Shown: positions 4,051 through 4,751 of the stretch, piece by piece
Layout of the letters: each line of letters begins with the position of its first letter
How positions within the stretch are numbered: position 1 is the stretch's first letter
UHGV virus genome: UHGV-0301654
DNA length: 10,290 nt
Strand: one strand, 5' to 3'
Source of the DNA: a virus
Program-made: the position numbers and the translations under genes
Notes under the pieces: generated by a model
The model's database searches: none
What the model saw: the letters and a program-made list of their open reading frames with translations, nothing else
Told to the model about the DNA's origin: nothing

Positions 4051-4461
4051 TTAGTGCGGAAATATTTGTGTAGTGTTCTGAATGTTCTCAGTAAAGAGTA
4101 ATGAATTATCAAAGGTATAGTAATACCTTTTGTTTTCGTGGATATTTGTAATCCATCTGAAAACCCCTGCTGTAGCAAGATTTTTCCTGTATTCGTAAAA
4201 TGATAACTCTCCTGATTTGAATCCTTTTAAGGTGGCTTCTATAAGGCATTTATTTTTTGAAAATCTTACATTTACAACCTTACCCTGTCCTTTTATTAAA
4301 ACCGTATTATCGTTTTCAAGAACAAGATGAATATTCTCTGTGGCTAAATAGTAAATGTAATGTGAGACATTGTGACGTTTTAGTTCAGAATAAAACCAGT
4401 GATAGTTTAAATTATTTCGCACTTTATTGAATATTTGTTTAAAAATGGCAACCTGAGCCAT
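4051..4461 (-). CDS. hypothetical protein; resembles the unnamed ORF at the right end of phage lambda upstream of cos
   Basis: ORF track gives 4051..4476 (141 aa). The second ATG at 4461 is preceded by GGAAGG and is the more likely start ([11 protein letters not shown]...). AT-rich, no recognisable motif. Similarity to the lambda right-end ORF is from memory only. Confidence 0.55.
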
Positions 4462-4517
4462 TGTAGTACCTTCCATGTGATATGAGGGGTGTAGTCTGCA
4501 CGATTATCTAAATTGCT

Positions 4518-4751
4518 TCAATCTGGTCTGATCTGTTTTCTGAGCAATTCAGTAATGTCACTCTTTTCTTTGTTTGCTTCAGGAGAAACTCTTTTTTCTG
4601 AGCACAGTCTCCGGCGGCAGGCTTCAATGACCCAGGCTGAGAAATTCCCGGACCCTTTTTGATCAAGAGCGATGTTAATTTGTTCAATCATTTGGTTAGG
4701 AAAGCGGATGTTGCGGGTTGTTGTTCTGCGGGTTCTGTTCTTCGTTGACAT
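4518..4751 (-). CDS. small basic protein, possible ribbon-helix-helix DNA-binding fold
   Basis: 77-aa ORF MSTKNRTRRTTTRNIRFPNQMIEQINIALDQKGSGNFSAWVIEACRRRL..., with a basic N-terminus then a strand-helix-helix-like pattern. Its 5' half lies in sequence I recall as the lambda right end. Fold assignment is by eye. Confidence 0.45.
   Translation of the reverse strand: MSTKNRTRRTTTRNIRFPNQMIEQINIALDQKGSGNFSAWVIEACRRRLCSEKRVSPEANKEKSDITELLRKQIRPD

Follow-up and report, generated by a model that had tools for sequence, protein, structure and literature searches.

Genes and features of the locus

The window analysed here, a stretch of 10,290 nucleotides from the viral genome UHGV-0301654, carries two reverse-strand genes beside its cos site. 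The upstream gene, ynfO, occupies 4518-4751(-) and encodes a basic protein of 77 aa (RefSeq entry WP_001663509.1), and the downstream gene resembles ydfO, ybcV and lambdap78 and encodes a DUF1398 protein of 136 aa (4051-4461(-)). An initial annotation had described the pair as two reverse-strand ORFs 41 bp apart beside cos, with the downstream one starting at 4476 and spanning 141 aa (4051-4476(-)), and these coordinates are confirmed. The ATG at 4461 is preceded at 7 nt by the Shine-Dalgarno sequence GGAAGG (4469-4474) and is the position at which RefSeq WP_032217515.1 begins; at the alternative ATG at 4476 a Shine-Dalgarno sequence is absent. As judged from these sequences, 4461 is the likelier start of the DUF1398 gene, and with it the gap between the genes becomes 56 bp. 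The intergenic spacer so defined (4462-4517(-)) holds the GGAAGG of the 136-aa start and corresponds by homology to the DNA preceding lambdap78.

The GC content is 31% in the DUF1398 ORF, 44% in ynfO and 36% over 4051-4751, compared with a window average of 49.7% and 54% in Nu1-A, and stands at 0.41-0.43 in the ynfO-side stretch up to cos. The marked AT-richness is mainly due to the downstream ORF, so that the description of an AT-rich stretch running on to cos holds for the DUF1398 gene and has to be toned down for the cos side, which is only moderately AT-rich. Both ORFs can be taken as true genes rather than chance ORFs, because dN/dS is low in DUF1398 as well as in the N-terminal domain of DUF3950, and both are under purifying selection. 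The block 3800-5140 (1.34 kb) is 100% identical to several E. coli chromosomes, in which RefSeq labels the products “DUF1398 family protein,” “YlcI/YnfO family protein” and “DNA-packaging protein,” and matches to it occur in 4882 of 5426 complete E. coli genomes as well as in 246 phage records, among them lambda, HK629/630 and DE3. The two-gene block is already known, consisting of ordinary ynfO/ydfO-like genes with their exact sequences in RefSeq, and the earlier judgement that the function is unknown rather than demonstrably new is borne out, both proteins belonging to catalogued families.

A promoter scan returned no minus-strand sigma-70 promoter upstream of either gene and manual inspection none that was convincing; the terminator scan gave no terminator between ynfO and the DUF1398 gene, and an Rfam search of the two-gene block gave no match. 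Just 3′ of the DUF1398 stop codon lies an inverted repeat (4014-4042), which is conserved in the lambda alignment and folds as RNA with −15.2 kcal/mol on the minus strand (z −1.7) and −16.7 kcal/mol on the plus strand (z −2.1); the terminator scan did not report it, and it is no canonical terminator. Further downstream follows a 54-aa ORF (3841-4005(-)) that is without a match in Pfam, NCBIfam, PHROGs and PADLOC and is probably not a gene. From about 3875 onward the DNA is homologous to the non-coding DNA between bor and lambdap78 of lambda.

On the other side, 200 bp from the start of ynfO, cosN (GGGCGGCGACCT, 4951-4962(+)) matches the lambda cohesive end exactly, with zero such matches expected by chance. 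It is followed by Nu1, the small terminase subunit gene (5140-5685(+); Pfam Phage_Nu1, 336.7 bits), which is divergent from ynfO. The stretch 5059-5115 between cosN and Nu1 forms a 26-nt inverted repeat with 85% complementarity, the arms of which contain CGTTTCCTTTCT, presumably the Nu1-binding R elements of cosB. Between ynfO and cosN lies a Fur box (4901-4919) with a perfect 6-1-6 core (GATAATTATTATC, 4901-4913), of which 0.02 are expected per window; the same site, designated “nohA -233,” was confirmed by gel shift in 2007 (PMC2189734). Among 160 loci the Fur box is found at a fixed distance in nearly every Nu1-type cos locus, with one apparent exception (L231, best score 13/19), and in none of those with another terminase type, and it is kept even where the synonymous sites of ynfO are saturated. 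An assignment of the box to ynfO itself was considered and rejected, since it tracks Nu1-type cos and not DUF3950; by this distribution it belongs to the Nu1-type cos module.

The surrounding prophage is scrambled. On the left, a truncated Pin/Hin-type invertase gene (206-424) and an invertible tail-fibre/tfa segment (682-3483) form a region (206-3875) that abuts the DUF1398 gene near 3875, where the lysis genes and bor are normally found. On the right (8183-10188), the portal gene B is truncated and fused to a tail-fibre gene with Ala/Ser-rich repeats (8183-9613), followed by tfa, and the 3′ part of this tail-fibre assembly gene contains a match to the Rfam family IS009 (RF02111, 226 bits) at 9956-10154(+). 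One strain has positions 1-7173 in common with the window, and there the region adjoins bioA-ybhB, the lambda attachment region.

The downstream protein belongs to DUF1398

The downstream ORF had been described as lacking any recognisable motif, a statement that does not survive a profile search. The protein matches Pfam PF07166 with 146.3 bits (cut-off 22) over the entire profile (1-119 of 119), aligns along residues 1-140 to the NMR structure of YdfO (2HH8) with an E of 8.1e-69, and is identical in sequence to WP_032217515.1. From these matches it can be assigned to DUF1398 as a close homologue of YdfO, lambda p78 and DLP12 YbcV. A PDB search with the family profile returned 2HH8 as the sole match, and an NCBIfam search gave noise only. 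The AF2 model is poor (pLDDT 47), and Foldseek recovered with it only 2HH8, mostly via sequence identity (TM 0.4), and no fold analogue. The protein has a pI of 9.5 and a maximum KD19 hydropathy of 0.39, and a search of its sequence for a hydrophobic or TM segment and a signal peptide found neither. An exhaustive search for the family yielded only 182 related clusters at 50% identity; by hhalign, chromosomal proteins of Weeksellaceae are homologous to full-length DUF1398 (99.7%).

The dN/dS ratio is 0.12-0.37 among the lambdoid copies and 0.05-0.07 among the chromosomal ycgX orthologues. Conservation is uneven along the gene, such that the middle (window 4202-4321, codons ~46-95) has 63% DNA identity to K-12 Qin, compared with 88-97% for the ends. 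In comparison with K-12 YdfO, codons 46-95 have a dS of 1.4 and a dN/dS of at most 0.43. Since dS rises there as well while dN/dS does not exceed this value, the middle third points to a mosaic ancestry, with an older segment at this place; positive selection on it was rejected on the same grounds.

The upstream protein is a YlcI/YnfO (DUF3950) homologue

The 77-aa protein scores 74.8 bits against Pfam PF13132 (cut-off 25) and 35.7 bits against NCBIfam NF041551 (cut-off 30), on which basis it can be placed in the YlcI/YnfO (DUF3950) family. It is strongly basic, with a pI of 10.6 for the whole protein and 11.2 for the N-terminal domain (codons 1 to ~53, 4593-4751(-)), in which a basic arm is followed by a predicted strand-helix-turn-helix of RHH-like (ribbon-helix-helix) appearance. 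This domain is near-invariant among homologues, with a dN/dS of 0.02-0.14 over the first ~50 codons at a dS of 0.4 to >2. The other two same-strand frames of the same DNA give values of 1.05-9.7, and because the low dN/dS is confined to its own frame, the constraint acts on the protein and not merely on conserved cos-proximal DNA. YnfO/YlcI stands out as an unusually conserved small protein beside terS. After about residue 52, by contrast, the homologues carry at least 8 unrelated tail types, and the variable tail of the window protein (4518-4592(-)) is of the Qin type (SEKRVSPEANKEKSDITELLRKQIRPD). We infer that only the first ~50 residues matter and that the tail is simply the sequence on the far side of a recombination junction.

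The AF2 model of the monomer (pLDDT 68, ~80 in the core) has an extended N-terminus and two helices (19-32 and 34-52) joined at Gly33, as would be expected of an RHH protein in monomeric form. An hhalign comparison with P22 Arc places NIRFPNQMIEQ in register with NLRWPREVLDL, although the match is weak (P 0.009, probability 4%), as is that to Mnt. The top Foldseek matches of the model, TCP-domain DNA complexes, are non-significant (E >4), a PDB search with the YnfO profile found no match, and a search of PHROGs gave a weak match to HicB-like antitoxins (E 0.007). The model and the sequence pattern make it plausible that this small basic protein binds DNA and is of the RHH type. Of the earlier description as a small RHH-like regulator with a disordered C-tail, the small size, the basic character, the RHH-like pattern and the lack of conservation of the tail hold good, and the fold match is weak.

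Arrangement relative to lambda

In an alignment to lambda (DE3 record), the DUF1398 gene and ~75 bp upstream of it are homologous, to about 4535, where the homology breaks, to restart inside ynfO near codon 53 and continue through cos to Nu1. Between the two breakpoints (window 4536-4597 versus L002:3209-3780) the window has ~60 unrelated bp and lambda ~620 bp, and the lambda segment carries lambdap79 on the opposite strand, a gene that is absent from the window. In lambda, ynfO is represented by an intact YlcI-like ORF that carries no annotation in the DE3 record. The suggestion that the two ORFs correspond to poorly characterised ORFs of the lambda right end proved correct, the counterparts being lambdap78 and this YlcI-like ORF, and so did the statement that the lambda gene lying between them, lambdap79/ybcW, is missing. 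The proposed internal deletion is right as to the loss of lambdap79; the exchange of ~620 bp for ~60 bp is a replacement and no clean deletion. By gene order the arrangement can be classed as that of K-12 Qin (ynfO-ydfO) and not that of lambda or DLP12 (ylcI-ybcW-ybcV).

The two genes are commonly found apart

The context of DUF1398 was surveyed with one genome per species, setting lambda contamination aside. The latter concerns contigs or “plasmids” of ~3.5 kb from unrelated taxa (L013-L034, L036, L045-L049), labelled as Arcanobacterium, Brevibacillus, Pedobacter, Cohnella, Flavobacterium and others (e.g. L018, CP136411.1), which are 99.6-100% identical to lambda over the same 3447-bp interval. 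They look like the remains of a lambda spike-in or control amplicon in the assemblies, which would explain many ~3.5-kb contigs in ENA. One paper has reported YlcI/YnfO in Arcanobacterium hippocoleae.

In this survey the only places where DUF1398 stands beside both DUF3950 and Nu1 are lambdoid right ends. At 32 other loci DUF3950 and Nu1 are absent within 5 kb and no neighbour is conserved; these lone DUF1398 genes are ycgX (Escherichia, Shigella) and loci in Citrobacter, Klebsiella, Kluyvera, Raoultella, Pseudocitrobacter, Salmonella diarizonae and Epilithonimonas. The reverse test was made in IMG/VR with the 80 closest DUF3950 loci and 82 more divergent ones, 77 of which could be scored in each set. 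DUF1398 lies directly downstream of DUF3950 at 74 of the 77 closest loci with enough flank and at 17 of the 77 divergent ones, leaving 60 divergent loci without an adjacent DUF1398 (56 with no DUF1398 and 4 with only lambdap79). At many of the DUF3950 loci that lack DUF1398, a Terminase_2-like small terminase gene stands divergently in place of Nu1. DUF3950 is always divergent from, and directly beside, terS, with two unrelated terminase types, and is therefore tied to the terS boundary rather than to DUF1398. The Qin-type YnfO tail is followed directly by DUF1398 at 96 of 97 loci. In the window this tail is inherited with the cos-side module, which is 98-100% identical to Qin, and the DUF1398 protein differs at 25% of its residues.

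Expression of the K-12 paralogues

The evidence on expression is taken from published work and concerns the K-12 paralogues, not the window's own sequence. In K-12, PdhR sites have been described at ynfO-ydfO and in the interval separating ybcV from ybcW, two genes whose expression falls ~10-fold in a pdhR mutant; the K-12 Qin copy of the site, AACAGGTCAGACCAGAT, is a genomic-SELEX PdhR site (PMC7660256). In the window a PdhR-box-like sequence, AACAGATCAGACCAGAT, lies over the last ynfO codons (4521-4537), differing from the K-12 Qin copy at one core position. Exposure to an ionic liquid raised ydfO 12-fold by microarray and 117-fold by qPCR (PMC4077768), ybcV rose >1000-fold when MotB of T4 perturbed H-NS silencing (PMC7827196) and was raised in a sabinene-tolerant strain, and with copper ybcV was among the strongly down-regulated genes. 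The listing of ydfO as “essential only by TraDIS” (PMC5821084) is probably an artefact of AT-rich, repeated DNA. The protection against oxidative stress ascribed to YdfO (PMC4077768) was discarded as a mix-up of gene names, the paper cited for it (PMC3105296) reporting on YfdO of the CPS-53 prophage.

Interpretation

We consider it probable, if some way from certain, that the locus is a standard accessory (“moron”) region of a lambdoid right end, of the Qin type, with two separately inherited genes that do not form a toxin-antitoxin (TA) module. Here ynfO and then the ydfO-like DUF1398 gene are read leftward, antisense to the late operon, from just left of cos and Nu1, and because both genes are transcribed against the late operon, expression from the prophage would be most plausible. 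YnfO would act as a small basic DNA binder of the RHH type. The DUF1398 product would be a soluble cytoplasmic alpha/beta protein of 16 kDa that is dispensable for phage growth, the gene of which may be kept silent in AT-rich DNA of the type bound by H-NS and be induced under stress or by PdhR and similar regulators, and the protein would act on the physiology of the lysogenic host rather than in virion assembly. A single leftward transcript may nonetheless cover both genes in the Qin-type arrangement.

Such a transcript would be central to a regulator-effector operon, in which YnfO, as an RHH protein, represses its own gene and has the downstream DUF1398 gene under its control as well. The two genes lie on the same strand, only 41-56 bp apart and with no terminator detected between them, they adjoin at most of the closest and some of the divergent loci (74/77 and 17/77), the Qin-type tail goes along with the presence of DUF1398, and YnfO has its RHH-like features. 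Nevertheless, DUF1398 keeps its own conserved upstream region with the PdhR box whether or not ynfO is adjacent, a divergent gene sits between the two in lambda and DLP12, the partner is missing at 32 DUF1398 and 60 DUF3950 loci, and the tail travels with a cos-side module next to a DUF1398 protein that differs by 25%, which gives no sign of co-evolution. An operon of this kind is something we would put forward only tentatively, with perhaps a minority chance of being correct; a looser regulator-target relation within the Qin-type arrangement is possible.

Two further proposals start from the boundary with terS. According to the first, which is unlikely, the DUF3950 N-domain is a hitherto unrecognised and very strongly constrained DNA-binding regulator of the RHH type that is kept divergent from terS whatever the terminase and may control leftward genes such as DUF1398, or silence terminase and late read-through in lysogens, with DUF1398 as a host-directed effector. 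In the second, YnfO acts at the lysis/packaging boundary, for example by binding near cos/terS and affecting terminase expression or packaging, and DUF1398 is an unrelated passenger. The invariable position beside two unrelated terminases, the extreme conservation of the N-domain and the report of DUF3950 in capsid-forming PICIs with their own TerS/TerL (PMC13612085) would suit a packaging role. Yet the direction of ynfO is opposite to that of the late operon, it has no known packaging phenotype, the upstream sequences are not common to both terminase classes, and the conserved Fur box follows Nu1 and not DUF3950, so that a packaging role seems more doubtful still. A search for an operator shared by the upstream regions of the two terminase classes found none.

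The initial annotation had likened the pair to an antitoxin-toxin or small regulator-effector module. For a type II TA system, YnfO would be an RHH antitoxin, the C-terminal tail of which neutralises a DUF1398 toxin, and the layout of a small basic RHH-like protein followed by one of ~135 aa is indeed reminiscent of RelBE and ParDE, the Qin-type tail is essentially confined to neighbours of DUF1398, and the PHROG match to HicB-like antitoxins, weak as it is, points the same way. This reading fails because each gene is often found alone and neither protein matches a toxin, TA or defence family in Pfam, NCBIfam or PADLOC, the last of which gave only a noise-level match to Csx23. Moreover, DUF1398 is under strong purifying selection (dN/dS 0.05-0.07) and stands without the partner at 32 loci, and in lambda and DLP12 it is paired with a YlcI that lacks the Qin-type tail. 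The YdfO structure 2HH8 was solved from the protein alone, and as an NESG target YdfO was presumably overexpressed in E. coli. TraDIS flags ydfO and not ynfO as insertion-poor, the opposite of what is expected of a TA pair. A ybcV overexpression clone was recovered in a glycogen screen; its place in a list that also holds hokA and yoeB (PMC2853380) would speak for a TA system. As far as their distribution and family matches indicate, the two genes do not behave as a TA pair or as an obligate regulator-effector module, and a TA function is highly improbable.

Least credible of all is a structural role of the DUF1398 protein, to which PHROG 413 (E 9e-89) lends the label “head protein” and the lambda records, for lambdap78, that of “putative envelope protein”: the envelope label is unsupported since the protein has no hydrophobic segment, nor a signal peptide, and so is the head label, because the gene runs antisense to the late transcripts at a site away from the head module and because lambdap78/ybcV is non-essential for plaque formation, as lambdap78 is non-essential by CRISPRi (PMC10695390), ybcV::kan is viable and lambda recombinants that had incorporated the resistance gene from the kan-marked DLP12 locus grew (PMC3945230), quite apart from the chromosomal homologues in non-phage contexts, including Bacteroidota. 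One practical gain is that the TA idea and both of these labels can be dropped.

Comparison with known systems

With P22 Arc and Mnt and with RHH antitoxins (RelB, ParD and the C-terminal domain of HicB) YnfO has in common a basic N-terminal arm and two predicted helices meeting at a Gly turn within ~50 residues, as well as a short strand motif, NIRFP in YnfO and NLRWP in Arc. It differs from these proteins in that there is no significant match in sequence or fold and in that it has no conserved toxin partner. The DUF1398 gene can be compared with the lambda morons bor and lom, which likewise are non-essential, lie against or outside the late operon and have a GC content below that of their surroundings; in lambda the DUF1398 gene adjoins bor. 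Bor and Lom, however, are envelope proteins with known phenotypes, whereas the DUF1398 protein has neither an export signal nor a known phenotype.

The lambda right end and ybcV-ybcW-ylcI of DLP12 have homologues of both genes, DUF1398 and DUF3950, at the corresponding position with respect to bor/Rz and cos/Nu1, but differ from the window in the oppositely oriented lambdap79/ybcW between the genes and in the tail of YlcI. The closest counterpart is ynfO-ydfO of Qin, which has the same order, strand and place by cos and nohA and no ybcW between the genes, with a DNA identity of 98-100% over ynfO and the cos side. By contrast, the window DUF1398 protein is only ~75% identical to K-12 YdfO, with a far more divergent middle, and the left flank consists of the tail-fibre/invertase segment instead of gnsB-cspI. 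Absence of lambdap79 is already known as a natural polymorphism, and a phenotype has been reported for it: according to a 2026 preprint, the Vulcan NADase defence is activated by lambdap79, and lambda-vir mutants escaping from Vulcan lose this gene, probably via recombination with Qin (bioRxiv 10.64898/2026.09.04.749371); the window is a natural case of this escaper-like arrangement.
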